NCBI GenBank assembly: GCA_031835245.2
Contig: JAVKOQ020000082.1
Coordinates: 1-64,000 of the forward strand
DNA: 64,000 nt
Direction of reading: 5' to 3'
Source of the DNA: Balamuthia mandrillaris
Lineage: Eukaryota
Positions 6,890 through 59,966 of the stretch are shown in pieces. The position numbers and the translations under genes were made by a program. Under the pieces are notes generated by a model, which was given only the letters and a program-made list of their open reading frames with translations, made no database searches and was not told where the DNA came from. How positions within the stretch are numbered: the stretch's first letter is position 1; each line of letters begins with the position of its first letter.

Positions 6890-8588
6890 ATGGCTGCCAA
6901 CGAGATCAGTAGGGATGAGCTGTTGAAGCTGGGCAGAAAGGTTTGTGTGAGTGTTTGATGAAAATGAAACCCAATCGCTGATCTGAATTCACAAAGTTGT
7001 TAGAGGAGGGGAGAGAACGATACAAGAAGAAGGTTCAAGCAACTGACCTGAAAGCTCCCGCAGCTGAGATCAGTCCCAACAAGCCGTTCTTCAGGTGCTA
7101 TTGCCTTAGTATGAACACACCATCTCGTAATAGCCGAACTGACCGAGCTTTCCTTTCCTTTCCTTTCCTTTCAGCCAGCTAGCTGCTCTACAGCGTGAAG
7201 GTTCATCAACGGGAGGTTGTTTGTCTCCTCCATTGGCGAACAGGTTGGCTCTAAAAGGCAATGGTTCCCCTATTCACAGCGATGAAAGACGGGAGGTGCC
7301 CGAGCAAGGGCTGCGGTTCAAAGTGGCAGCACAGGACAGGCGAATTGCCGCGTTGCTTGCCCGAGTGACACAACTGGAGACCAAAGTTAAGGAGGTTGAG
7401 GCGGAGAAAGAGGAGGCGGTTACAAAGGAGGTGATGAAGAGAAAGGAGGAAGTGGCGCAACTTCAAGAAGAAATGGTGGAGCGCAAACAAAACTTAGCTC
7501 AAGTAGTTGCTAAGTTGCAATTAGAGCTAGCAGATGCTAGACGACAGCACACCAAAGCTACACAAGAGACGCAACAGACAATGGAAGAGTTGGCAGAGAG
7601 AGAAAAGCAGCTAACGAAGATGAAGGAAGAGACGGAATTGAACAGCCAACATATAAAACGTGTAGTTATGTTGGAACAGGCGATAGAGGTGCGTGATAGA
7701 GAGATTGGGAAACTGAAAGAGGCGACGCAAGAAGCCTGGGCTAAGAACGAAGCGACAAAGACAGAACTGACCACGAAAACGGAAGAACTTGTCCAGGTTC
7801 AGCAACGCAACAACGAATGCGAAGCTCAGATCAAAACGATGGCTGAACTTCTTGCCAAAGAAATACAGAGGAACAAGAAACTTATGGAAGAAATGAAAGG
7901 CAGCAAAGGGCAGAATGCATCCAAGGTGGGGGAGCTACAACACACTGTTGGGCAGCTTCAAAAGAAACTGGAGGAAGTGTTGGCGACAAAAGAACAAGCA
8001 GAAAAGAAGCTTCAACTGCTCACTGACGAGAACTTGGACTTGAAAGAACATACCGCCGCTTTAAACGAAACGAAAGTGAACGAGGTTGGCCTAGTCGAAC
8101 AAGAAACAGAAGGGGAACGGAAACCTGAAAATCGTATGCAGATGACGCTGACCGTGACAAACGACCAAGAGAAAGTAAAGACGTTGGAACAAAGCAACGA
8201 ACGGTTGATGGAACAACTGAGAGAGCAACGCAAGCAGATCGTGGTTCTTATGCAAAGCAAAAACGAGGCGATGAGTCAGTTATCAGCTGAAGTCGGCAGG
8301 TCTGGCGCACTGATCAGAGAAAACCAACGACTGCAGGCAGCTCTTCTCGCCTACAAGAACCAACCTCACCGCAGCTCCGAGATGGGATGTGGATCTGAGG
8401 AGAAGACTTCCTCCCAAAGCAGCAATCACGCGGAAACCCGTGCACCAGCGAACGAGGCTCCTCAAGTTCCACCTGCCCCTCCTTCTCCATTGACCGAAGG
8501 AACTGCAATGCAAGGCGACACCCCAGTACAACCAACAGATGCTCGTGTTGGATGGATGTCTTGGCTTTGGGGTTCTCCCGAAAGCTAA
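6890..8588 (+). CDS. Long coiled-coil protein (golgin/BLISTER-like)
   Basis: Exon 1 MAANEISRDELLKLGRK spliced to LLEEGRERYKKK; long heptad-rich E/K/Q ORF 7221..8588; C-terminal GWMSWLWG. Confidence 0.65.
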
Positions 8589-8848
8589 GTGCTTCTGTGG
8601 GATAGCTGATCTCTTTTAATAAGGAGTGAGCTCCTACCTCGTCTACACGAACTAAGACAAGCTTCCATCCACCACACACGATGGCAACGCTCAACCTGCA
8701 GGCCGACTGAATGTCCTTGTTCAAACATGGATGACAAATGCCGCCACAAAGATACATGTGGGACCAGGCGTTTCAATTTCCGATTAAATAAACAAATAAA
8801 TAAGCAAATGTGAGCAAATAATTATTTTAAAAACCGAACAACACAGCC

Positions 8849-9961
8849 ATGGAAGAAGAAGAAGAAGAAGGCGTTTCCCTCCCAGAAGAATGTTTTTTCT
8901 TTCAAGATAAGGAAGAAGCTAAACGACTAGCGCCGCATTATTGGGACGGGGAGCGCTGGAGCCCTGTCAAGACTCCACGGCAGCTAGTTTGCGACCCTCT
9001 AGGAGGACTAAAGAGAATACAAGAAGAACACAATGCGGGGTCAGTTGTTGGGTTGGTCACGTATAACGTTTGGTTTGGAAAGTTTCATGTGGAAGAGAGG
9101 ATGAAGGCTATTGGTGAGCTCATAAGCAGCCTGCAGCCTCAGCTTGTTGCACTTCAGGAGGTGAACCCCCATATCAACGAACTGTTGCTGGCCCAACCGT
9201 GGACGCACGAATACTACGTTTCGGACCCGTTGGGCAAAGAGCTGAACGGCTACGGCGTGATGTTACTCTCCAAGCTTCCTTTTCACGAGCTCATCGTCCA
9301 AGACTTTCCCACGCGACTCGGTAGGAGAGCCCTTCTGGGGACGGTACTCTTGCCTTCTTCCTCTCCCTCGTTGCAAGCACCGAAACAACGTGCCTTGGTT
9401 TTGGGGACGTTCCACCTCGAAAGCTACAAGCCGGACGTCGAGTGGCGACGACAACAGGTGAGTATGTTACACGACTTGACCAAAGACTGTCCTCGTGTGT
9501 TGCTCTGTGGAGACACCAACTTTGCGTCTCACCGCGAAGCTGTTGGATTCGGACCTCGGTACCTCTCTCTGAACTTGAGCAAGGCTTTTTTCTTGCTGAT
9601 AGTGTTGTTGACTGTACTTTTTTTTTCTTCATGTCCAAGGTTCAAAGACGCTTGGCACACATTGCATCCGAATGACCCCGGAGTTACGGTTGGTGAGGCG
9701 AATTCGTTCATGGGGCAGCCTACCCAGAAGCCGGCAGATGAACCACAACCAACCACCAACAAGGGGTTTTGGGTCTCTCTCAAAGAAACAATTTTCCCTC
9801 CACCAAAACAGCCGGTGTTCAACCGCCGTTTGGATCGTGTAGTCTACACACATGCCACCATAGAACCTTGCTCAGCGCAGGTCATAGGCAAAGAACCTTT
9901 CGCAGAGGGTGTATGGCCGTCAGACCACTACGGTCTGCACACGACGATAAAGATGGTGTGA
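8849..9961 (+). CDS. TDP2-like endonuclease/exonuclease/phosphatase (EEP), paralog A
   Basis: Motifs TYNVWF, LQEV, HLES, GDTN, RLDRV, PSDH; one in-frame intron at ~9559-9639. Confidence 0.85.
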   Translation: MEEEEEEGVSLPEECFFFQDKEEAKRLAPHYWDGERWSPVKTPRQLVCDPLGGLKRIQEEHNAGSVVGLVTYNVWFGKFHVEERMKAIGELISSLQPQLVALQEVNPHINELLLAQPWTHEYYVSDPLGKELNGYGVMLLSKLPFHELIVQDFPTRLGRRALLGTVLLPSSSPSLQAPKQRALVLGTFHLESYKPDVEWRRQQVSMLHDLTKDCPRVLLCGDTNFASHREAVGFGPRYLSLNLSKAFFLLIVLLTVLFFSSCPRFKDAWHTLHPNDPGVTVGEANSFMGQPTQKPADEPQPTTNKGFWVSLKETIFPPPKQPVFNRRLDRVVYTHATIEPCSAQVIGKEPFAEGVWPSDHYGLHTTIKMV

Positions 9962-31020: not shown

Positions 31021-32739
31021 TCATCCCAATTGCTTGGTTGCTCTGCAGTGCAAAGCCAAGTCGGTTGGAGAGGGCACGTTGTACTGCTTCAGCCAACGTT
31101 GAATCGTTTGAAAGGTGAGCCGACGTGCCTCTTTCACCTGCGGTGGATCCGCCAGCTCCCTCTCTGCAAACATGTCGTAAGTGTGGGCCATCCTCTCCAC
31201 ATCGATCGCCTGCAGCTCTCTCTTCTTCATCTCCTCATCCCCGTCCATTTCCTTTGCCCTTGGAGAGAAAGCTCGGACGGGGTCGTAACCTCCGTTCACC
31301 CACAAGATACGACTTGCTCCTTGCGTTGTTGTGGCGTCGAAGTCAAGTATAGGCGAGACGTAACCGCGCCACCAGGAAAGAGGATCGAAGGAGGCCTTCA
31401 CGCCTGGCCATTCCCTCTTGCAGTACTCCACCATGAGAGAGTAGTTATAGGGAGAGGGAATGGCGAAGATGCCCGTCCCCGCGATGGGCTGAACGAACTG
31501 TTGGCAACAGAGGTAAGACCATGGTTTCCGTTCGATGGGCAACGGATCCTTCCTTGCGTCTTGAGGCGAAAAGAGTCGTGAAGAAGACGAAGATGATGGT
31601 TGTGATGAAAGCAGAGAAGACGATGAAGATGATGGAAGAAACGTAAGACAAGGCAAGTCTTTGGTGGCATTATAGTACATGTCCAGCGCTAACCCAATAA
31701 GCCCTCTTTCTGATGCTTCGTTTCGTTGTTGACAGAGAACTTGTAAGGGATTGGCAAGGTGGAAGGGCGGATTGGCGATCGGGTAGTTGAACTCAGCGAC
31801 GGATGCGAAGGCGTTTCTCGCCGTCAGCAACAACCTAAAGACGTCCGAAGAGGAGCTCACCTCCTCGCAAAGCCGATACCTCTTCTTCAGCTCTTTTCTC
31901 AGCGTCCCATTGAATCGCTGCTGATAGACCTGCTCAAACTCTCCTCTCACCGCTTCTCCGCAGCTCTTCTCCGTTGGGAGAAAGGGCACAGAGTTGAACG
32001 TTTGACTGACGTGGTCGAACCAGGTGGAGTTGGAGACTTCGCCGACGGTGTAGAGAGCGGCCGCGCTGGCTATGGCGCCTCCGTTCACCACCGTGGGATG
32101 CTTGGCCCTCATCAGCATTGCAAGAAACCCGCCATAACTTCCTCCAAAGGTGAATACTTTGCCGCCTTGTTCTCTTTCTCTTCCTCTGGTGTTGCTTGAA
32201 GACAACGAAGAAGAAGAAGAAGAAGAAGAAGAAGAAGAAGAAGAAGAAGAAGAAGAAGAAGAAGAAGAAGAAGAAGGCATGTATTGCTGCTGGACGTGTT
32301 GGATGATGGCCACGTAATCCGCCAAAGTTTGTTCCACCGTCAAGAAGACGACGTTCTCCGGGGTGAAGCTCAGCTCCGGTCCGAAGGGCAAGCTCTCCCC
32401 AAAGTAACGATGCTCGGCGGAGACCAGGAGGGCGTTCAAGCGGGCTGCATAGGCGGCGAACGCGATGACGCCGTCCATCACGCTGGCGGGGGAGAGGCCC
32501 GCCTCCGGGCCGCAGTAGAAGAGGAGCGGTCCGCCGGGCTTGTAGTGAGCGTCGTTGACAAAGTACTTTTGAAGAAAGAAAGAGGAGGAGGAGGAGTGGG
32601 AAGGAGCGTTGAAGTGGTCAACGGGCTGTTTGAAGTATTTGGGCGAAGGAACGTCCTTGGAAGCAGAAGGAACAGAAGCAGAGGAGGAGGAGGATTGCAG
32701 CACGAAGAGAAGGAAGAGGAAGCAGAGAGGGTGTTTCAT
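31021..32739 (-). CDS. Serine carboxypeptidase S28 family (PRCP/DPP7-like), secreted/lysosomal, intronless
   Basis: Signal peptide MKHPLCFLFLL; QPVDHF; EHRYFGES.P; catalytic GGSYGG; YDP (Asp); AHTYD (His). Confidence 0.92.
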   Translation of the reverse strand: MKHPLCFLFLLFVLQSSSSSASVPSASKDVPSPKYFKQPVDHFNAPSHSSSSSFFLQKYFVNDAHYKPGGPLLFYCGPEAGLSPASVMDGVIAFAAYAARLNALLVSAEHRYFGESLPFGPELSFTPENVVFLTVEQTLADYVAIIQHVQQQYMPSSSSSSSSSSSSSSSSSSSSSSSLSSSNTRGREREQGGKVFTFGGSYGGFLAMLMRAKHPTVVNGGAIASAAALYTVGEVSNSTWFDHVSQTFNSVPFLPTEKSCGEAVRGEFEQVYQQRFNGTLRKELKKRYRLCEEVSSSSDVFRLLLTARNAFASVAEFNYPIANPPFHLANPLQVLCQQRNEASERGLIGLALDMYYNATKDLPCLTFLPSSSSSSLLSSQPSSSSSSRLFSPQDARKDPLPIERKPWSYLCCQQFVQPIAGTGIFAIPSPYNYSLMVEYCKREWPGVKASFDPLSWWRGYVSPILDFDATTTQGASRILWVNGGYDPVRAFSPRAKEMDGDEEMKKRELQAIDVERMAHTYDMFAERELADPPQVKEARRLTFQTIQRWLKQYNVPSPTDLALHCRATKQLG

Positions 32740-33232
32740 GGTGTACACGTTTCGTGGAACTCGCCCTTCTTCAACAAAATGAATTTGGAGCTCTTTCCCT
32801 TCCCGAAAGAAATGGGCGAGCGCAAGGAATTGGGGTTGCGAGCGCCTGCCACCCGAAAGAAGACGAGGTGGGGGAGGGGGGGTTGGGGGCGGCCTCATAC
32901 CTTGCTTTTTTTTTTTGTCGTCTGTCCGGCTTCGAACTTGCGGCAAGGTGCTTGCCACAGCGCACCCTTTCGAGGTATTTTCTAACGTTTGCAAAAGCTG
33001 AAAAAGGTAGCGAACGGTAGCTCTTGGTGACTCAGTTATTTATGACTCCATTTTTTTTTTTTTCGGTTATTTCGCACCGAAACTTTTTTTTTTCTTCTTT
33101 TTTTTTTCCCACTCCCTCTCGGCTTGTGCTTTTTCAGGAAACCAGGTAAAGTCAGGTATATAAAGTCTGTTTTGTTTTTTTTTTTAAAAAAAAAATTGTC
33201 TGCACACGCGAACACACATTTCAAAGGGACGC

Positions 33233-35947
33233 ATGGAAGCAACAACGGAAGGGAGCAAACGACGGAGGAGGAGGAGAAGAAGACCACGATGGGAGAAGGT
33301 GGAGAAGGAGGAGGAAGAGGAGGAGGAAGCCCTTCCCTACCTTCCCGCCATGTTCCACCGCTTCGCACACTCGACCACCTGCGACCTCTCCAAGAGCTAC
33401 CTGACCGCCTTGCCGAGAGAGGTTGGCTGGCTGACCGCCCTCACTGTATTTAACCTCATGGGCAACCAGCTGAGCTCCTTGCCGAGCGAGTTTGGCAAGC
33501 TCACCGCTCTCACTGCCTGCGACCTCTCCAACAACCAGCTGGCCTCCTTGCCGAGAGAGTTTGGCCAGCTCACCGCTCTCACTTGCTGCAACCTCTCCTA
33601 CAACCAGCTGACCTCCTTGCCAAGAACGTTTGGCCAACTCCGTGCCCTTACCGACTGCAACCTCGCCAACAACAGGCTGACCTCCTTGCCGAGAGAGTTT
33701 GGCCAGCTCACCGCTCTCACTTGCTGCAACCTCTCCTACAACCAGCTGAGCTCCTTGCCGAGAGAGTTTGGCCAGCTCACCGCTCTCACCCGCTGCGACC
33801 TCCACCGCAACCAACTTACCTCCTTGCCAAGGGAGTTGGACCAGCTCACCGCTCTCACCTTCTGCGACCTCCGCCACAACAGGCTGAGCTCCTTGTCGGC
33901 AGAGTTTGTCCAGCTCACCGCTCTCATCCTCTCCGACCTCGGCCACAACGCTCTCACCCTCTGCGACCTCAGCCAGAACTCTGTCACCCGCTGCGACCTC
34001 TCCAGAAACCAGCTGTTATCCTTGCCGAGAGAGTTTGGCCAGCTGAGCGCTCTCACTGCCTGCGACCTCGCCAACAACAGGCTGAGCTCCTTGCCGAGAG
34101 AATTTGGCCAGCTGAGCGCTCTCACTGCCTGCGACCTCTCCAACAACAGGCTGAGCTCCTTGCCGAGAGAATTTGGCCAGCTGAGCGCTCTCACTGCCTG
34201 CGACCTCTCCAGAAACCAGCTGAGCTCCTTGCCGAGAGAGTTTGGCCAGCTCACCGCTCTCACTGACTGCGACCTCTCCAACGACAGGCTGACCTCCTTG
34301 CCGAGAGAGTTTGGCCAGCTCACCGCTCTCACTTGCTGCAACCTCTCCAACAACCAGCTGACCTCCTTGCCAAGAACGTTTGGCCAACTCCGTGCTCTTA
34401 CCGACTGCAACCTCTCCAACAACCAGCTGAGCTCCTTGCCGACAGAGTTTGGCCAGCTCACCGCTCTCACCCACTGCTCGCTCTTCTGCAACCAGCTGAG
34501 CTCCTTGCCGAGAGAGTTTGGCCAGCTCCGTGCTCTCACCCACTGCAGGCTCTTCTGCAACCAGCTGAGCTCCTTGCCGAGGGAGTTTTGCCAGCTCACC
34601 GCTCTCACCGATTGCGAACTTCCCAACAACAGGCTGAGCTCCTTGCCAAGAGAGTTTGGCCAGCTCACCGCTCTCACTTGCTGCTGTCTCTCAAATAACA
34701 TGCTAACCTCCTTGCCGAGAGAGTTTGGCCAGCTCACCGCTCTCACTGACTGCAACCTCTCCAACAACCAGCTGAGCTCCTTGCCGGGAGAGTTTGGCCA
34801 GCTCTCCGCTCTCACCCGCTGCTACCTCTCCAACAACAGGCTGACCTCCTTGCCGAGAGAGTTTGGCCGGCTCACCGCTCTCACTGCCTGCTGTCTCTCA
34901 AACAACATGCTAACCTCCTTGCCGAGAGAGTTTGGTCAGCTCACTGCTCTCACGGAGTGCTGGCTGTGCAGCACCCAGCTGAGCTCCTTGCCGAGAGAGT
35001 TTGGCCAGCTCACCGCTCTCACCCGCTGCGACCTCTCCAACAACCAGCTGACCTCCTTGCCAAGAGAGTTTGGCCAGCTCACCGCTCTCACCCACTGCGA
35101 CCTCTCCAACAACCAGCTGACCTCCTTGCCAAGAGAGTTTGGCCAGCTCTGCGCTCTCACCCGCCGCCTTCGCTCCAACAACCAGCTGACCTCCTTATCG
35201 AGAGGGTTTGGCCAGCTTCCCGCTCGCAAATACTGCAACCTGGAGGAAAACCCATTGGCAGCACTGCCCTCCTCTGTGATTCGTCTTCTTCCATGCATGC
35301 GAACACAGTCCTCTCAACTCCTTCACCTACAAGAAGCACAGCTTAAACAAGCGGAGGAGAATGATGAAGAGCAAGAGGAGGATAACAGAGCGAAGCCCAA
35401 GGAATCACCGCTCAGGAACAACCACACCACAGTGAAAAGTTTGTGGCATTCGAGTGGAGAGGCGGTGCTGAGGAACAAGCTTTTGCCCACTGACCTGTTG
35501 ACCCTTGTTCCAGACCTTCCCTTTGCTTGGTTTGGTTCTTCTTCTTCTTCTTCTTCTTCTTCTTCTTCTTCTTCTTCTTCTTCTTTGCTTGCACAACGCC
35601 TCAAAGAAAATGTGGAGGGTGCGGCGGTGGTGCTGCCAGAAGAAGTGAAGGACCGGCTGGAAAGGTTGCAAAGGAGATGTGATGTTTGTGCGCAGCTGTT
35701 TTTGGAAGCAGACGAAGATGAAGCTGAAGACGAGGCGGAGGAAGAAGCGGAAGAGAAAGGGCAAGCAAGGCAAGTGGTGAGAAGGTTTTGGGACGAGGAA
35801 AGGGAATTGTGGTGGGAGTTGTTGTGTTGCAGCCAGCGCTGCTTCCACCGCCCCTTGCTGGATGTTTCCTTGCAGTGCTTGCCTCTCGCAGAGGAGTCCA
35901 AAGTCCGTGTCGTCACGGTTAATATCCGTGACGACACGAAAATGTGA
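33233..35947 (+). CDS. Intronless LRR protein (~26 x 23-aa repeats) with C-terminal BC-box-like helix and Cys4 Zn motif
   Basis: Repeat consensus LxSLPREFGQLTALTxCxLxxNx; C-terminal VKSLWHSSGEAVL...LPEEVKDRL...CDVC...CCSQRC. Confidence 0.9.
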   Translation: MEATTEGSKRRRRRRRRPRWEKVEKEEEEEEEALPYLPAMFHRFAHSTTCDLSKSYLTALPREVGWLTALTVFNLMGNQLSSLPSEFGKLTALTACDLSNNQLASLPREFGQLTALTCCNLSYNQLTSLPRTFGQLRALTDCNLANNRLTSLPREFGQLTALTCCNLSYNQLSSLPREFGQLTALTRCDLHRNQLTSLPRELDQLTALTFCDLRHNRLSSLSAEFVQLTALILSDLGHNALTLCDLSQNSVTRCDLSRNQLLSLPREFGQLSALTACDLANNRLSSLPREFGQLSALTACDLSNNRLSSLPREFGQLSALTACDLSRNQLSSLPREFGQLTALTDCDLSNDRLTSLPREFGQLTALTCCNLSNNQLTSLPRTFGQLRALTDCNLSNNQLSSLPTEFGQLTALTHCSLFCNQLSSLPREFGQLRALTHCRLFCNQLSSLPREFCQLTALTDCELPNNRLSSLPREFGQLTALTCCCLSNNMLTSLPREFGQLTALTDCNLSNNQLSSLPGEFGQLSALTRCYLSNNRLTSLPREFGRLTALTACCLSNNMLTSLPREFGQLTALTECWLCSTQLSSLPREFGQLTALTRCDLSNNQLTSLPREFGQLTALTHCDLSNNQLTSLPREFGQLCALTRRLRSNNQLTSLSRGFGQLPARKYCNLEENPLAALPSSVIRLLPCMRTQSSQLLHLQEAQLKQAEENDEEQEEDNRAKPKESPLRNNHTTVKSLWHSSGEAVLRNKLLPTDLLTLVPDLPFAWFGSSSSSSSSSSSSSSSSLLAQRLKENVEGAAVVLPEEVKDRLERLQRRCDVCAQLFLEADEDEAEDEAEEEAEEKGQARQVVRRFWDEERELWWELLCCSQRCFHRPLLDVSLQCLPLAEESKVRVVTVNIRDDTKM
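33401..35254 (+). repeat. Tandem array of near-identical 69-bp coding repeats
   Basis: The unit core CTCCTTGCCGAGAGAGTTTGGCCAGCTCACCGCTCTCAC recurs at 69-bp period; one 60-bp irregularity near 33950-34009. Confidence 0.95.
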
Positions 35948-51629: not shown

Positions 51630-54600
51630 ATGTCTTTTTCGGGCTTTGGTTTTGGCGGGGGCGCGCCGGCCTTTGGGTCTGCTCGTTCTACTCCTCCGTC
51701 CGCCATCCCGCCGGTCACTACAGCCCCAACGCAGTCCGCGTTTTACCGCTCCACCACCAGCTTTGATCAAAACGCAACTGCTTCTTCCTCTGCGAACCCT
51801 TATTTAGTGGGCTCCACCGCTTCTGCTTCTTCTCCTTCGACCATTCCTTATCCTGTAATGCCCCCTTCTGCAGCTTCTTCTGCTTCAGCTTCCCCTTTGT
51901 CAGGCCTGGCTTTTGCCTCACCTCTTAGCCACGCCTCGGGAGTGCTACAGTCCATCAAAAAGAATGGACTGGCTCAGGACCCTGCCGCCTTGATCGAGCA
52001 GCTGCAGCACATCAAGGACGCCACCACCAAGATGGAGTTGAGCGCCTCGACGGTGGACTCTCTCGCCTCCACGGAGGTTGCTCTGTGGCGGCGCTATCAA
52101 AGGCAGCTGGCCCGGTTGGAGGACGCGGCCTGGCTGCAGCTCAGCGAGAAAGCCCTTCAACCCTCTCACATGACAGGCCTGCATAAGCTCCTTGGCATGG
52201 AGCAGAAAGAACTAGTCTCAGCACAAGAGAAGGCCGACGCCAAGAATAGACGCGAGACGTGCAAGCTGCTGTTGAAGGAGAAGGCCAAGTTGATAGGCAT
52301 TGTGGAGGAGCTTGGAGTGGAGGAAGCAGGCAACCCCACCAACAAGGAGGGACCAAACTTTTCTCTATCATGGAACGAAAACCAAAAGACTCTTTCTCAG
52401 CTGTTGGGTCATCTCTCTTCCTTCACCGCTAAAACGAACAGCTTGGACCTTGATGTAGAGACACACGCGAAGTTGATGCAGTACGTGAACAAATCGGTGG
52501 AAAGAGAACGGCAGCGACAAACCAAGGTTCGTCTCTCTCTGTCTCTGTCTCTCTGTCTCTCTCTGTCTCTCTCTTTCTCTGTCTCTGTCTCTCTCTCTCT
52601 CTCCCCTCCTTCTTTCTCTGTTTTTTTTTTGCGAAACTTGTTCTAAATGCCTGAATGCAGCGCCGTTGGAAGTATCGAGCTGCTACCGCTGAGCCCCAGG
52701 CGCAAAGTTACAGCAACACAACCAAAGTCCCGTTCATAGTATCGGTTTTTAACCGGACGTTTCCTCTGTTGGTGCAAACATTGCACAAATCGCAACACAC
52801 GACTACTGCGGAGAGCATTTTCAATCGATTGCGGGACGTGATCCTAGAGCAAGAAGACTTTGCAAGCGTCAAATCTGCTGCAATGCAATTCTCCGCCGCT
52901 TCATATGTTTCAAGCAACGTTCGCGCTGACAAGCCGAGTCAAACTTCGTTTGGGTCTGCTGTTGGCTCCTCAACACCGTCCACATCTCCGTTTTCGGCTC
53001 CCTCTGCTTCTGCTTCTTCCTCTCTTCTCACTTCTTCTTCTACTTCGACTACTACCCTGGCATCAGAAGAAAGCGAACCTATTCAAGAAGAGGAGCATGA
53101 GCACAACAAATATGCGAATGTTTGCTATGCCGCCAAGTTGTGGTTGGGTCAGTTGAAGACAACTTGGAGCACAACTCTTCGTGCACTTGATGCAAATGCT
53201 GTCCAAGCAAAAGTTGGCTTACTCTTTGCATTACTCGGTCAAATCTCTGGCCTCTTTGTAAGCAATTTTCTTCCTCTCTCTCTCTCTCCTCCCTTTCTTT
53301 CTTGTCGTCTCTCTCTTTCTCTCTCTCTCTCTTGCTCTCACCTTTTTTATTTGCCAATACTGACGTACCAGTTTTCACATCAGTTGTCTTATTACTTGCA
53401 TGCAACATATCCAGCGGCACCTGTTGAGAGTGCCTTCACTGCAGACTTGAGCAAAGTAACCCCTGAACTGCTTATCTTGCTTTGCCACGACATCTTGATC
53501 CCCGCTGTCTCTTCTCTGGGCGAAACAGATGATGAATTTTGCAGCACCTTTCTCAAGCTCATCATCCCGCTGTACCAACACAACATCGGAGCTGTTGGTT
53601 CGCCAGATAACAGCAATAAGGCGGCAGCGAGCACCGAACCGCAGACGTGTAAAGTTACTGATGAGGAGGGGGTTATCAAAGTCTCCCTTCCGGACCAGAA
53701 CTGCAATACCAACAATAACAGCAGCAACAGCAAGTCTTCTACTACCAATTCATCCTCTTCAGAGGATCAATTCCTCGCCCAGGATGATGCTCATAATGTG
53801 TCTCCTCTGTTCTTGGGACACAATCTTAGTGAGGAACCTGCCGAGTGGTCACAACCCCTTAAGACTTGGTTGCACACGTTGCTTCCTGCTAACTCACCCT
53901 TTGGAAGCTCTGTTGATTTTGCTGCGGAGATCGTTACTGATAAGAAAGAGAAGAAAGAGCATGCGCTACCTCCTCCGCTGCAACACTCACAAAAGCGGCC
54001 AGAGCAAGCAGTGGAAACCACAAAGAGCAAAGATACTCAGATTCAAGCTGCAACTGCTTTGACTTGTCACGTTTTGATACGGGGTTCTATGGAAGATATT
54101 CTCGCCGTTGTCAAGTCATTTGTGTTACCACAACAGGAAAGCTCTTCTTCGAAGGATGAGGACGAAGATGAACACGATAAGTTGCGTGACATTGCAAACG
54201 ACGAGGATGAGAGCCTGAGCATTGTGCCTACCACAAAAGCCAGGACTGCTACTGTTACCTCCTCTCCAGCCGATCTGATTCTTGATATAGCCCCATTCTT
54301 GTATAAGTGGGGCCAAAAGACCACTTCTACTAAACAATTAGGTTCGTTCTCCTTGCTTTGTTCCTTTTTTTTTAATTCTTTTGTCCCCTTTCTCCTTTTT
54401 ATTTGTCCTCGTTGCTTTCTTCGATCATATTTAACGCTGTTTTTTTTTTTTTAAAACAAACAACTTGAAGCGCTCCTGTGGAACTCCTTCAAATCTATGA
54501 TGACCCAGACTAAAACTACTTATGCCTACAAAGACGGTTTTCTCTACCTTCATAACACCGGGGGCCTCTTTAAAGTTGGTACCGGTCAGCATGGCACCAT

Positions 54601-57600
54601 CGCCAATCGAATCTACAATGCCGTTCAAGGCTATCGCTCCAAAGAAAAGGGTTGGCTCGCTGTCGCTGGTGATAAGCTCTATTACCGATCTAGCAATACT
54701 GGCTCTGCCTCCCTCCTCGCTCTTAACCTGGAGACATTGACGGTAGGCTGTCCTTAGCTTGCTATTTTCATATCTACCCTTTTGTTTAACATGAGTTTGT
54801 TTGGGTTTGCTTTGGTTTGATAGGAAGAAGCAGAATTTAGGTCACCAACGTTTAAAGCAGCGTTACCTCAGCTATCTGCTCCGCCAACTCCAGCTGAAGA
54901 TCAAACGAAAAGAAAGAAAATGGAAGAAGAGGAAGAAGCAAAGGAAAAAGAGCAAGCATCCCCTTCTTCGTCTACCCCCGCCGCTCCTACTGCTACTGCA
55001 CCTATCGATGCTTCGGAATCACAACAGAACAACCAAAACGACACCGAAAGTAATACAGAACAAATACCGATGAGTAAACTGAAGATCATTCAACTAGACA
55101 AATCGTCTCAGCACTTCCATCCTGAGAAAAACGAGCTCACCGAGTTTCGGTCTCCCCTTTTGTCTGATGGGAGATATCTGTACATCGTAAGCAAACTAAC
55201 CTCTCCGCAGGAGCAACAGCAACAGCAACAACAAGCCAACAAACCTGCTTCTAGCAATGATCTCTTGTCTCCCAGTGCAGCTGCTGCGAGCCTGTTTCCT
55301 CCCAAGAAATTTGGAACAGTGCCTCAAACCTCCTCTGGCTTCACGCTTTTCTCCTCTTCGTCTTCCTCCTCGTCGGACAGTTCTGCCTCTTCCCAGTCAA
55401 GTGGCTTTGGTGCATCAACACCATCCACTACTACTTCCTCCTCCTCCTCGGTTACGTTTGGTGGATTCGGAAGTGGTTCTGGATCTTTATTTGGAAGTAG
55501 CAGTAACTCTTCTTCCTCCTCTTCATCATTTGGTGGTTTTGGCTCTTCTTCACCCTCGTTGTCATCTCCTGGTTTTGGCTCGTTGGCTTCTTCTTCTTCT
55601 TCTTCTTCCCCATCGCTTGGAGGATTTGGCTCTTCTTTACCCTCGTTGTCATCTCCTGGTTTTGGTTTGTTAGGCGCCACCTCAGCTCCATCCAGTTCCT
55701 TCAGCTTTTCCAACGCCACCACTCCCTCATCTTCCTTTGGGGGCTTCGGTTCAACAACAAGTTCCTCGTCTTCTGCTTTCGGTGGTGGCTTCGGTTCGAC
55801 AACAAGTTCCTCGTCTTCTGCTTTCGGTGGTGGCTTTGGTTCAACTGGTGGAGGATTTGGCAGTACTGCTACAAGCTCGTCCTTTGGGTCAGGTTCTTCC
55901 TTTGGAGGCTTTGGTTCAACAACAAGTCCCTCTTCTACTTTTGGTGGTGGATTTGGTTCGACCGCTGGAGGATTTGGAAGTACTTCCTCCTCCTCTGCAT
56001 TTGGTGGTTTTGGTACTGCCACTACTCCTTCGTCTTCTTTTGGCGGCTTAGGAGCCCCGCAAACCTCCTCTTCATCTTCGTTTGGCGGCTTCAGCTCTGG
56101 AGGAAGCTTTGGAGGCAGCGGCTTTGGAGCGTATACCACCACTGGAGGATTTGGTTCGACACTCTCCTCCTCTCCGTTTGGAACTCCATCTTCCACTTCA
56201 GGCGCGTTTGGATCGACTACTACTCCTGCCACCTCTACTCTTGGTGGATTTGGAAGTTCTCCTTCTTCAGGTGGCTTTGGATTTGGCTCAACTCCTTTTG
56301 GCACTGAATCTCCTTCTTTTGGTAGCGGAGGTTTTGGCAGCAGCTCTTCTTCCTTTGGAGGGGGTTTTGGAAGCACTTTTGGCGGTGGCTTTGGGTCCAC
56401 CACTCCATCTTCTACTCCTGCTTTCGGTTTTGGCTCGACTGGAGCAACAATTTCTTCTTTGTCTTCTACCCCTTCTTCCGGAGGAAGTGGTGGCGGCTTA
56501 GGGAGCCGCGCTACTGGCTCTATCTCCTCTGGCGGGAGTGGCGACTTTGGTTCCTCTGCATTTGGTGGTGGAGGTTTTGGGTCGACCGCTGCTTCCCTTT
56601 CTTCGGCCTCCAGTGTTCCACTGGGAGGAATTGCAACTTCTGTTCCATCTTCTACCACCGCCACTACAAGCCCAAGTGATGGCGCACCTCAAAGAGAAAG
56701 GCTATGGATGATTGGCGTTCCTACTACTTATGATGAAGAGAGGATTAGGGAGCTGCTCGTTCCTTTTGGTCGTATTACCTTCTTCTTCATGGCCCGTGAT
56801 TCCAGCGGACAATTTACTGGCCGTGTTCTTGTGGAATACAGAGACATTACCTCTCGAGGAGAAAGCGGAACCGAGGAAGAGCGTCCCGTTGTAGATCGTG
56901 TAATCGATGCTCTGAACGGATTCCCCCTGGAGGATTCCACGCTGTCCTTCGAGAGAGTGCCAGTGCCGCAGGATCAACCTACCACCACTAGCACCCCTCT
57001 TTTCGGTTTAACATCTTCTTCTCCTTCTTCGGATAGCACTACTTCTTCCACTTCCATTTTCGGTAGCGCGACTACGCCCTCTCCTACTTCCGCGCTTCAG
57101 ACCAACCCTGCTCCATTTGGAATACCGCTGACCACTCCCCCATCCACCGGCACTTCATTGCCGATCCCTGCTGCACCAGCGCCTTCTTCTTTGTCCTCTG
57201 CTTCTTCTTCGTCTGCTTTTTCATCTTTCCTAATGAGCAGCGAGGAGAGAGCCAAGAAAGAGGCCGAAGACAAGTATATTGTTGAGATCTTTGATCCCCA
57301 ACTGGAAGGCATGCCCTTGATTCGCCGCGTGCAACTCAAGAATCCAACTGGTCTCTTCTCTTTCTTTATTCCATATTTTACTCTCTCTTCTCTCTCTCTC
57401 TCTCTCTTTGCTATATGTCTTTCTCTTTCAATTTGTACTAAGATCTCTTTGTTTGTTTGTTTTTAGGTTTGAAACTGTTCCTTAAGAACAACGGCACAAC
57501 TGTCTTCACTCCACCCGCTCCCAGGGAATGGGCCGGCTTCGACTTTCAGGTCATTACTGCCATGCCTCAGTACAGCCACTATTCCTTGGAGGAATTGCGT

Positions 57601-59966
57601 GCATTGTACTATCAACCCGGCATTGAGATTCCTCCCTTCACTTTAACCCAAAAGATCCTTCGTTCCGGCCACTTCTTCACTGATGGGCAATATCTGATGG
57701 TGGTTGTGGAGACTAACAGTAGCACCGCTCAACCACAACTGGATGACAGCCTCTCGAACAAAGACCAGTCGTACATATGCCGTTTGTTCTCATTGGCGGA
57801 TGGAGCTCACATTTGTGACTCCATCTCGGATCGAGTTCTTCCGAATTTCCATCTGGGTAAATTCTCTCTCTCTCTCTCTCTCTCTATCTTGCTCTTGCTC
57901 TTTCTTTTTTTTTTTTAATCGTCTTCAACTACAAAAAGGCTTTTCTCTGTACGACTACTTGATGTCACCTGCGAACATTCAAGAGCTACCAGAATGTGCG
58001 CTTCCCCAAAAGATCCACGACAGGGAGCGGGAATACCAAGCTAGAGAAGAACAAGAGAAAAGAAAGGCTCAAGCTAAAAAACTCGCAGCTGTTGGCATTG
58101 AAGCAGTAGGTAAAGAAGAGGAAACAGAACTAGAAGCAACATCAAAGAGTGCAGAACCAGAAGTTGCTGGCAAAGAAAAGAGGCCCGAAGAAAGCAAGGA
58201 TAAGGAGAAGGAGGAAACTGCCTCTTCTTATGCTATCGTACCGCCCAGACAACCTATCTCAGCGATGCACGCATCAATATCCATTTTGTGCTTCCTCGAC
58301 TTCTTCTCCAAGCATTTCCAGGCCACCAGAGAATTCAAGGACAAGAAGGAACAAGACAAGGACAAGTCTGACAAACCTTCAACAACACCCTCTTCTACGT
58401 TTGGCTCTAGTTGGGCATCTTTCTCTGCCAACGCGCCAACAGGTGGTTTTGGAACCTCTGTTGCATCATCAACTGATGGTGTTGCCAAAAAAGATGGTGA
58501 AGAGAAAGAAGGCAAGACAACGGAGGATGACCTTCAAAATATCTGCATCTACGACCATAGCGGCCAAAAGATCTTCACGTTGACCTCTTCGCCGCAGGTG
58601 TTTGCGCATCTTCTTTCTATCATCGAGTTCTATGGCACGCTCTTCTTCCCTGCTGTTGCTCCCAGCTCCACTTCAGCTTTCATCTTCGCGTCCTTGGCTG
58701 TTAACGACGTGCGTGCTACATGGAAAGAATGTGTACAGAAAGCCCATGTGCTATTGACCAGCATGAAGATCTTTCGACGAGCTCTCCATCACGCTCTTCA
58801 CTCGGAGCGTAAGTTTGTGTTCAGCTTATCCAGCCAAACGAATGCCGCTGAGACGGAAGAACGTTGCAAGCGACATATTCGTGACTTATTGATGCGTTTC
58901 ATCTCTGGGGTCGAGTTGGGCACAACTCTCTCTAGCTTTTCTGTGGAGCAGAAACAGATAGTTGCGGAGAGTCTTCGATTGATACAGAAAACAAGCTGCG
59001 AAATCTTGGTCTCTGCCTTTGACTACTTTTACACTTCGAAGGAGCTTTGCGAGCTACTCTGCGAGTTGTTGCAAGAGCTGGGTTCCGCTTCTTCTTCCAG
59101 CAACAACTTGATTCATGCGAGAGGCTTGCTTAGCCACATGTTAGTGGATAAACTCACCAAAGCCTACTTCTTGCCGCTCTGTCACATCAACCAGAGGACC
59201 GCACTCGCAGAACAAGTAGCGCGATTAGAGAAGTTACATAAGACCTTGGTTGAAGAAGCAGCACCAAAGCAACAAGAGAGTAAGGAGGAGCCAGAACAAC
59301 AAGTGTCACAAGAAGAGGAGAAGAACAAGAAAGAGAAGCCCATAGATGACTCGGAGAGCAACGCGAAAAAAGAAGAAACGGAAGAAGAAGCTCAACATCT
59401 ACTCAAAGAGAGCATTAGCTCTTCCGAAGAAGCGTCTTCACAGCAAGAGGCATTGATGGGCATTGTTGGACTTTTGGTCAAGATTGTTGCGCTCGAGTTC
59501 AAGAACCACTTGGAAACGGCGATGATCCCTTCTCAAAAGTTGCCATTCGTGACCGCTTCACAAAATCTCGCTATGTTGAGCAGCTTCCAGAAGAATATCT
59601 GCGAGTTGAGCACCAAAGATCTCCTTGACAACAACTCAGCTGCTAATGCAGCTCTTCTTGACAACGCTTCTCTGTTCCGAGGTCACAATGACACCAAGTC
59701 TCCTACTTCTGCTGCACCGTCTTCACACAAGGACCAAGTAGAAGCTCTTCTTACACAGCACAAAGAAAGGGCTAAGCTATTTACGCTTCGCATTTTGGCG
59801 GGGTACACGAAGATTATCACAAAACAAGCCACCATTGTTCTGGAGAGCATGTTCAAGTACCTCCAGGAACACCCATTGCCTCCTCCTGCCTCTTCTACCC
59901 GTACTATCGAGACGTACACATCTACACCCACTCCTGATGGTTCTACGCTTGGTCGTCACCTGTAAG

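Follow-up and report, generated by a model that had tools for sequence, protein, structure and literature searches.

Little is settled about how free-living amoebae detect infecting bacteria and viruses, and a gene of Balamuthia mandrillaris raises the question of whether a diversified family of leucine-rich repeat (LRR) proteins could contribute. The gene occupies positions 33233-35947 (plus strand) of a 64,000-nucleotide stretch of contig JAVKOQ020000082.1 (assembly GCA_031835245.2, positions 1 to 64,000; hereafter the window), where a single uninterrupted open reading frame (ORF) of 904 residues encodes an LRR array followed by a C-terminal module. A first-pass annotation, made from the letters of this stretch, had proposed a receptor repertoire generated by shuffling of repeat modules. 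Our analysis points to a dispersed amoebal family that is a concrete candidate for such recognition. On balance we think it probable that its members join a variable LRR face to a predicted Elongin BC-cullin docking tail, and that each protein would bind a different target and mark it for degradation.

The repeat array varies at four outward-facing positions

The first-pass annotation had described about 26 near-identical 69-bp LRR units at 33401-35254, and three approaches agree with it. Tandem Repeats Finder (TRF) reports a 69-bp period with 26.9 copies at 33379-35225, in-frame parsing yields 26 units of 69 bp over 33401-35254, and a 27-nt scaffold probe gives 21 matches, every one within the array, compared with none in 100 shuffles. 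An assembly artefact is an unlikely source of the array, as the longest exact repeat within it is 72 bp and independent contigs match both of its ends.

Variation is concentrated in a small part of each unit. Across units 2-24, unit positions 16, 18, 20 and 21 have amino-acid entropies of 2.75, 2.32, 2.03 and 1.86 bits respectively, and no other position exceeds 1.41 bits. These four positions are the outward x residues of the LxxLxLxxN beta strand, in agreement with the earlier assignment of the variation to the concave LRR face, and all eight face motifs quoted in that annotation are present. Read as four-residue words, the faces take 21 different forms in 24 parsed units. The same annotation held that the scaffold is uniform even at synonymous sites, which does not stand: the scaffold has a pairwise proportion of synonymous differences (pS) of 0.205, compared with 0.24 for the face. 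Because the two values are close, the contrast between scaffold and face resides in amino-acid changes. Codon statistics here and below omit units 1, 25 and 26, and the later ones also drop the irregular unit 8.

A further regularity concerns unit position 17, where the core residue is usually leucine. Cysteine takes its place in 22 of 23 units of this gene and 24 of the 26 units from paralogs, giving a ladder of buried cysteines.

The gene belongs to a dispersed, multi-copy and transcribed family

Searches with the C-terminal tail found 8 and 9 proteins, 12 of them distinct. Ten of the 12 are named B. mandrillaris proteins, distributed over at least 9 contigs and 46-63% identical to this tail where whole. 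One match, P0131, was dropped as an unrelated repeat. The sole tail relative not named as Balamuthia is P0132, from an ENA contig of 621 bp; it is 32-37% identical, has the canonical BC-box cysteine, and hints that the tail module may occur in another organism, although no locus for it was found. Among the annotated relatives, P0128-P0130 are truncated or lack half of the tail. Four relatives carry arrays, with 5, 6, 6 and 9 parsed units compared with 24 here; the same four columns are variable, and their 26 units contain 25 face words, one of which is in common with this gene. The first-pass annotation had named a single-copy gene as an outcome that would speak against its proposal, and what we find is a multi-copy family.

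Wider searches added no members. Of 7993 candidate proteins close in length, none scored in a search with the tail, a result in which flooding by low-complexity sequence is possible and which is no evidence of absence; none of four proteins looked up by exact identity was present in the protein collection, and none of 164, 19 and 78 pattern matches in metagenome and viral contigs could be confirmed as tail relatives. No published account of this LRR family was found in the open literature, subscription papers and bioRxiv supplements lying outside the search. Specifically, the main text of PMC10471605 contains no LRR, cullin or elongin term, the supplements of two Balamuthia papers contain no Elongin B/C or cullin terms, and term searches of PMC9485057 (main text) and PMC8569187 (supplement) gave no match.

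Sequencing runs provide a second view of family size. In two DNA-like runs, X6 and X8, 528 and 277 contigs respectively match a 414-bp stretch at 85% identity or more, and 23 and 28 contigs have a letter other than that of this copy at a single BC-box position. Summed depth over the repeat scaffold is about 10 times that over the BC-box, and the BC-box sum is in turn 60-140 times the depth of one contig. Since such sums do not translate into copy numbers, we cautiously put the family at tens of copies. One near-copy in X6 differs from this gene at 11 of 132 letters (33409-33540) and, over 228 letters at 35191-35421, at 15 letters and by a 3-base gap. It is about 7-8% diverged and has a similar depth (27-32 compared with 29-41). 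It could be a second allele that has diverged strongly, or else a paralog of very recent origin; a variant contig of the neighbouring S28 peptidase gene in the same run differs at just 3 of 270 letters.

Transcription is supported in two studies. Runs X1 and X5 cover both the LRR gene and the S28 gene and fall to zero over 32888-33097, where X6 is continuous at a depth of about 24; given this intergenic drop, both behave as RNA, a judgement made from coverage alone because the kind of run is not on record. A contig of X5 extends beyond 33333 on the upstream side by 131 nt, which would take it to about 33202 given colinearity; the comparison of reads left out 33080-33332, which includes the letters of the leader. 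The raw RNA run X18 holds 122 family reads, and none of the 122 and 18 aligned reads falls on this gene at 99% identity or more. With a neighbour-gene depth of at most 2 and about 3% of the run read, this says nothing on silence. In X1, this copy has a depth of 670 over 35132-35481 compared with 13 for its closest relative, and the depths are similar in the DNA-like runs; copies may be expressed at very different levels, although contig depth is a poor guide to this.

The C-terminal tail follows the layout of a predicted ligase-docking module

The first-pass annotation contained neither the C-terminal module nor the two mini-units described below. The tail consists, in order, of an acidic linker, a BC-box match, two Cul2-box matches, a CxxC motif, a predicted beta hairpin and a CCSxxC motif. 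The BC-box consensus, [TSP]Lxxx[CAS]xxx-phi, is matched at residues 736-745 and lies in register in 8 of 11 relatives, P0128 having a partial match; the box patterns are those of PMC13342108 and PMC3355856. Of 20000 shuffles, 0.4-0.5% contain a BC-box with a Cul2-box no more than 25 residues behind it (a three-motif figure of 1 or 2 in 20000 comes from a test devised with the sequence already known, and no weight is placed on it). In the distant P0132, the defining residues, including the canonical cysteine, are kept while the x positions change. An Atlas feature search with residues 560-904, which span the last repeats and the tail, placed LRRC28 first (0.94, 183 of 256 features) and also listed LRRC58 and LRRC69 clusters at 0.91, ahead of other LRR families. 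Together, the motifs and the modelled strands follow the order of the LRRC28/LRRC58 layout: LRRs, BC-box, Cul-box, cysteines and a two-stranded sheet. Membership of the LRRC28/58 family is, from these sequence features, plausible but unproven.

Several observations weigh against this assignment. Each motif is short and degenerate: the BC-box match alone arises in 13-29% of shuffles, P0124 has asparagine in place of serine, which breaks the consensus, and the nearby Cul2-box match of P0132 is out of register. The two Cul2-box matches begin 5 and 55 residues past the BC-box, compared with a usual spacing of 8-23 residues (PMC3355856), although an 89-residue linker between the boxes is described for PCMTD1. 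In the Atlas calibration, which was not made for protein parts, 4-10 of 100 shuffled proteins score as high as 0.9. The tail alone gave no usable Atlas match. As matches appear only with the LRRs included, those to LRRC28/58 may be LRR-driven. The tail likewise had no match among PDB sequences (0 at E of 10 or below) or in NCBIfam, and no SOCS-box or VHL-box Pfam match was present in 7 family members. Its structure model has a predicted local distance difference test (pLDDT) score mostly below 50, and a single-sequence fold prediction was unusable (pLDDT 42). Fold searches covered the LRR part alone and returned LRR matches only, with LRRC58 not among the matches listed. Finally, Cul2 and Cul5, together with their Elongin complexes, are described as specific to animals, yeast presenting a separate case, and the cullins of Dictyostelium have been matched to CUL1, CUL3 and CUL4B.

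Some of these points also speak for the most serious alternative, in which the protein is an intracellular LRR binder that has diversified but carries, as its tail, a lineage-specific domain for zinc binding or scaffolding, the boxes being chance matches in amphipathic helices. That no hidden Markov model or Atlas entry recognises the tail by itself, that the motifs are short, and that Cul2 and Cul5 are reported as confined to animals are in its favour. It would leave to coincidence that BC-box, Cul-box, CxxC, hairpin and CSxxC come in the published order of LRRC58, that the defining residues persist in P0132, and that LRRC28 and LRRC58 head the Atlas list above other LRR families. We regard this alternative as doubtful, though not to be taken lightly.

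Face codons change much faster than the scaffold

The contrast between face and scaffold is firm. On a fixed tree, the four face codons have a length per codon of 15-17, about five times the 3.2-3.3 of the scaffold, and pairwise ratios of non-synonymous to synonymous differences (pN/pS) are 1.95 and 0.47 respectively. An equal ratio of non-synonymous to synonymous rates (omega) for face and scaffold is rejected in all 12 fits, with twice the log-likelihood difference (2dL) at 49-133. Using an all-site tree and a shared synonymous rate, omega is 2.1-3.3 for the face and 0.36-0.48 for the scaffold, and a face omega of 1 is rejected at p = 0.003 to 4e-6.

Whether this reflects positive selection is a finer question. 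With a separate synonymous rate for the face, omega falls to 0.26-1.31. In a worst-case null that combines a neutral face with full recombination, the observed statistic is reached in 7 of 138 simulations (p ~0.05), and in a tree-free version of that null 23 of 400 reach the observed value. In the light of these results, omega above 1 is not secure. The excess of non-synonymous change foreseen by the first-pass annotation stands insofar as the face is far less constrained, and is borderline as to omega. We conclude that positive selection on face codons is likely but borderline.

The same results would suit a birth-and-death family under drift, with an unconstrained face, repeat number set by slippage, an absence of selection favouring new specificities and many copies that may do little, a process compatible with an origin as ligase adaptors. 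The truncated and half-tailed relatives would fit it too, and drift has been proposed for similar expansions (PMC4209131). Other features of the gene are harder to reconcile with drift. The first and second positions of face codons have a variability of 0.40-0.50, exceeding the 0.22 at fourfold sites of the same units (p = 0.036 for five a-priori codons, 0.002 for four codons), and codon 15, another outward position, shows no change at either of its first two bases. The gene is transcribed, and its 2.7-kb ORF is unbroken, the irregular insertion preserving the frame. Drift as the main explanation seems to us quite unlikely.

Units appear to expand and exchange within each gene

Non-adjacent units are near-copies of one another. 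Units 3 and 13 differ at 2 of 69 nt and units 4 and 14 at 4 of 69 nt, in agreement with the resemblance of units 3-4 to 13-14 seen earlier, and units 4 and 14 have 6 private bases in common. Units 18 and 21 are related copies as well, with 4 private bases in common, although the first-pass statement that they share CCLSNNM with the same codons holds only in part: one asparagine codon within it differs, and 6 nt differ overall. Neighbouring units are no more similar than random pairs (p = 0.14), and a test for recombination within units was not significant (p = 0.07). Unit 8 carries a 60-bp in-frame insert of two 30-bp mini-units, each corresponding to the beta-strand/face third of a unit (codons 13-22). 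Irregular in-frame partial units, seen here and in 3 of the 4 array-bearing paralogs (P0124, P0125 and P0127), suggest imprecise unit exchange filtered for frame.

Comparison among genes places this expansion. Scaffold distance is 3.77 within a gene and 5.30 between genes (0 of 2000 shuffles; p = 0.04 for the paralogs alone), whereas face distance is 2.99 within and 3.14 between (p = 0.1). That scaffolds cluster by gene and faces do not points to expansion inside each gene. No LRR units, tails, fragments or donor cassettes were found outside the gene within the 64-kb window. Units 1-2 are letter-identical in runs of studies P1, P2 and P3, as are most of units 25-26 in P1, P3 and P4; this identity covers two units at each array end, in runs that may be of one strain, one of them possibly the source, and in contigs, which drop rare variants. 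Gene-specific scaffolds, the lack of cassettes in the window and identical array ends fit inherited within-gene expansion rather than somatic assembly of the kind seen in variable lymphocyte receptors (VLRs). The module shuffling by recombination or conversion suggested in the first-pass annotation is accordingly retained for the copying of non-adjacent units, and not for donor cassettes or somatic change, of which there were no signs.

In VLR systems the germline gene is incomplete and flanked by LRR donor cassettes, the product is secreted or anchored by glycosylphosphatidylinositol (GPI), and unit order is somatic and clone-specific. In agnathan VLRs, and in the nucleotide-binding LRR receptors (NLRs) of plants and animals, variation likewise lies on the concave xxLxLxx face. 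Here, by contrast, the ORF is complete, with no flanking cassettes in the window, and the 904-residue product has neither signal peptide nor membrane segment: its highest 19-residue hydropathy, 1.24, falls within an LRR, and no hydrophobic N- or C-terminal segment suited to VLR-type secretion or GPI anchoring is present. Targets of diversity-generating retroelements (DGRs) show adenine-specific variation, a template repeat and a nearby reverse transcriptase. In this gene there is variation at G, T and C positions of codons 16 and 20, and the rest of the window contains no template repeat. A VLR-like or antigenic-variation system, assembling clone-specific receptors somatically or by conversion from genome-wide donor cassettes, could draw on the many related units in the genome, the exact match of the two mini-units to a face segment and the private bases common to some distant units, but is very improbable in view of the absence of any unit or fragment outside the gene in the window, the gene-specific scaffolds, the end units identical across studies (possibly of one strain, one of them possibly the source), and the lack of reverse transcriptase, recombinase or deaminase families in the 27 of 98 long window ORFs scanned and in 9 Pfam-scanned proteins.

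Comparison with known systems and a proposed mechanism

LRRC58 is single-copy and conserved, and the tails of LRRC28 and LRRC69 are presumably laid out like its own. It is described as having LRRs, a BC-box, a Cul-box, a zinc loop and a two-stranded sheet, and as working with CUL2 or CUL5 (PMC13156300; bioRxiv 2025.09.23.678073). The order of LRRs, BC-box, Cul-box, zinc cysteines and sheet predicted for the present protein is the same. LRRC58, described with about nine repeats, differs in that number and in having one known substrate, CDO1, compared with tens of copies, about 5-26 young repeats and a variable face here. The present tail has long low-complexity linkers, and no alignment of it to LRRC58 was obtained.

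In PRAME proteins the boxes sit N-terminally. Members of this mammalian family are likewise LRR-containing BC-box ligase adaptors (CRL2), expanded through duplication with positive selection reported (PMC1262708, PMC3037382); they are not known to diversify via copying of near-identical repeat units. Repertoires diversified by repeat shuffling are described for the ROCO LRR genes of Ectocarpus and the 90-bp-exon LRR genes of Tetrahymena, and the former have been proposed as immune receptors (PMC3341825, PMC6564038). Those genes have one exon per repeat and, in Ectocarpus, a Roc-COR GTPase, in contrast to the uninterrupted ORF without a GTPase domain found here. As face-variable LRR families are thus a known theme in protists and algae, the surprise of finding one is limited. 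In the Parachlamydiaceae, NEX1 and PEX1 are lineage-specific expansions with variable LRRs and an F-box, U-box or BTB domain (PMC4209131). They couple variable LRRs to a ligase-docking domain, as proposed here, and differ in being secreted bacterial effectors with an N-terminal docking domain, as opposed to a host-side gene with a C-terminal BC-box-like module. Further related literature is found in PMC12590147, PMC12816148, PMC2785787, PMC9108976 and PMC3515798.

Pfam gave 8 matches on the gene, to seven LRR families and one weak unrelated family, with no NB-ARC, NACHT or Roc-COR among them; an NB-ARC or NACHT domain is what distinguishes NLRs. A whole-protein search returned generic LRR proteins only, many of Roco type, at 28-57% identity, and the nearest solved chains to the repeats (23-residue class) are Leptospira LRR proteins and SHOC2. 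By the features tested, the gene is no VLR, NLR, Roco or DGR target. By analogy, the protein would be most like LRRC58- and PRAME-type BC-box adaptors in its action and like the Ectocarpus and Tetrahymena LRR repertoires in its diversification.

The mechanism we propose for the ligase-adaptor family is as follows. Units would multiply and exchange inside each gene via unequal crossing-over, slippage or conversion over evolutionary time, their diversification being inherited rather than somatic. Purifying selection would hold the scaffold, and the face would be free or under diversifying selection. The BC-box would bind Elongin C, the Cul-box and zinc module would bind a cullin, and proteins caught by the face would be ubiquitylated. 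In the most speculative step, targets would likely be fast-changing foreign proteins of engulfed bacteria, endosymbionts or viruses. With such targets the family would be a candidate inherited immune repertoire. The fullest form of the proposal, a modular, cell-autonomous immune system in which tens to more than 100 co-expressed, face-selected LRR adaptors, inherited and rebuilt through exchange of repeat units, work on an amoebal Elongin BC-cullin ligase that degrades intracellular bacterial or viral proteins, is a tentative idea that we rate as unlikely in all its parts together. If true, Elongin-cullin ligases would extend beyond animals and yeast, and the family would be a counterpart, on the side of the host, to the LRR-F-box expansions known from symbionts of amoebae (PMC4209131).

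Organization of the gene and its neighbourhood

Features of the gene and of its upstream region are listed in Table 1. A bacterial promoter scan was set aside as inapplicable to this organism.

Table 1. Features of the LRR gene, in window coordinates.
Feature	Position	Strand	Basis or remark
TATA-like element	33157..33164	+	Upstream of ORF, read by eye
Basic then acidic leader with Lys-Arg8 run	33233..33328	+	Possible nuclear signal, inferred; paralogs have the acidic part only
N-terminal cap, common to paralogs	33329..33400	+	By-eye comparison with P0121, P0125, P0127
LRR array, 26 units of 23 residues	33401..35254	+	In-frame parsing; Pfam LRR_8, E 1e-58
Two in-frame 30-bp mini-units inside unit 8	33950..34009	+	TRF period 30 at 33919-34000
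LRR C-cap and acidic linker	35255..35437	+	Helix predicted in structure model
BC-box consensus match, residues 736-745 (predicted Elongin C binding helix)	35438..35467	+	Published consensus (PMC13342108)
First Cul2-box consensus match, residues 751-759	35483..35509	+	Consensus scan
(TTC)n poly-serine spacer, variable loop separating both Cul2-box matches	35536..35585	+	
Second Cul2-box consensus match, residues 801-809	35633..35659	+	In register in distant P0132; model helix low-confidence
CxxC (residue 816), first half of predicted zinc site	35678..35689	+	Found in 9 of 11 relatives
Predicted beta hairpin, then CCSxxC (residue 865), second half of predicted zinc site	35774..35842	+	

The window as a whole is eukaryotic in character, with simple repeats, housekeeping genes and 39-56% GC. 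Neighbouring genes are ordinary and include those for an S28 peptidase, a DnaJ-C28-like protein and GMP synthase, among others; the scanned ORFs include no enzyme of mobile elements or of recombination. The S28 serine carboxypeptidase gene (31021-32739, minus strand) is uninterrupted (E 6e-50) and runs divergently from the LRR gene, with about 500 bp (32740-33232) between the two starts. Farther away, a plus-strand ORF of 481 residues without a Pfam match (7143-8588) is followed by an uninterrupted exonuclease/endonuclease/phosphatase ORF (8831-9961, plus strand, E 6e-18); among the ORFs scanned there was no reverse transcriptase. Three long open frames on the plus strand, at 52655-54454 (599 residues), 54824-57466 (880 residues) and 57698-59965 (755 residues), have weak or no Pfam matches, and that at 54824-57466 overlaps GC-rich tandem repeats at 55738-56375.

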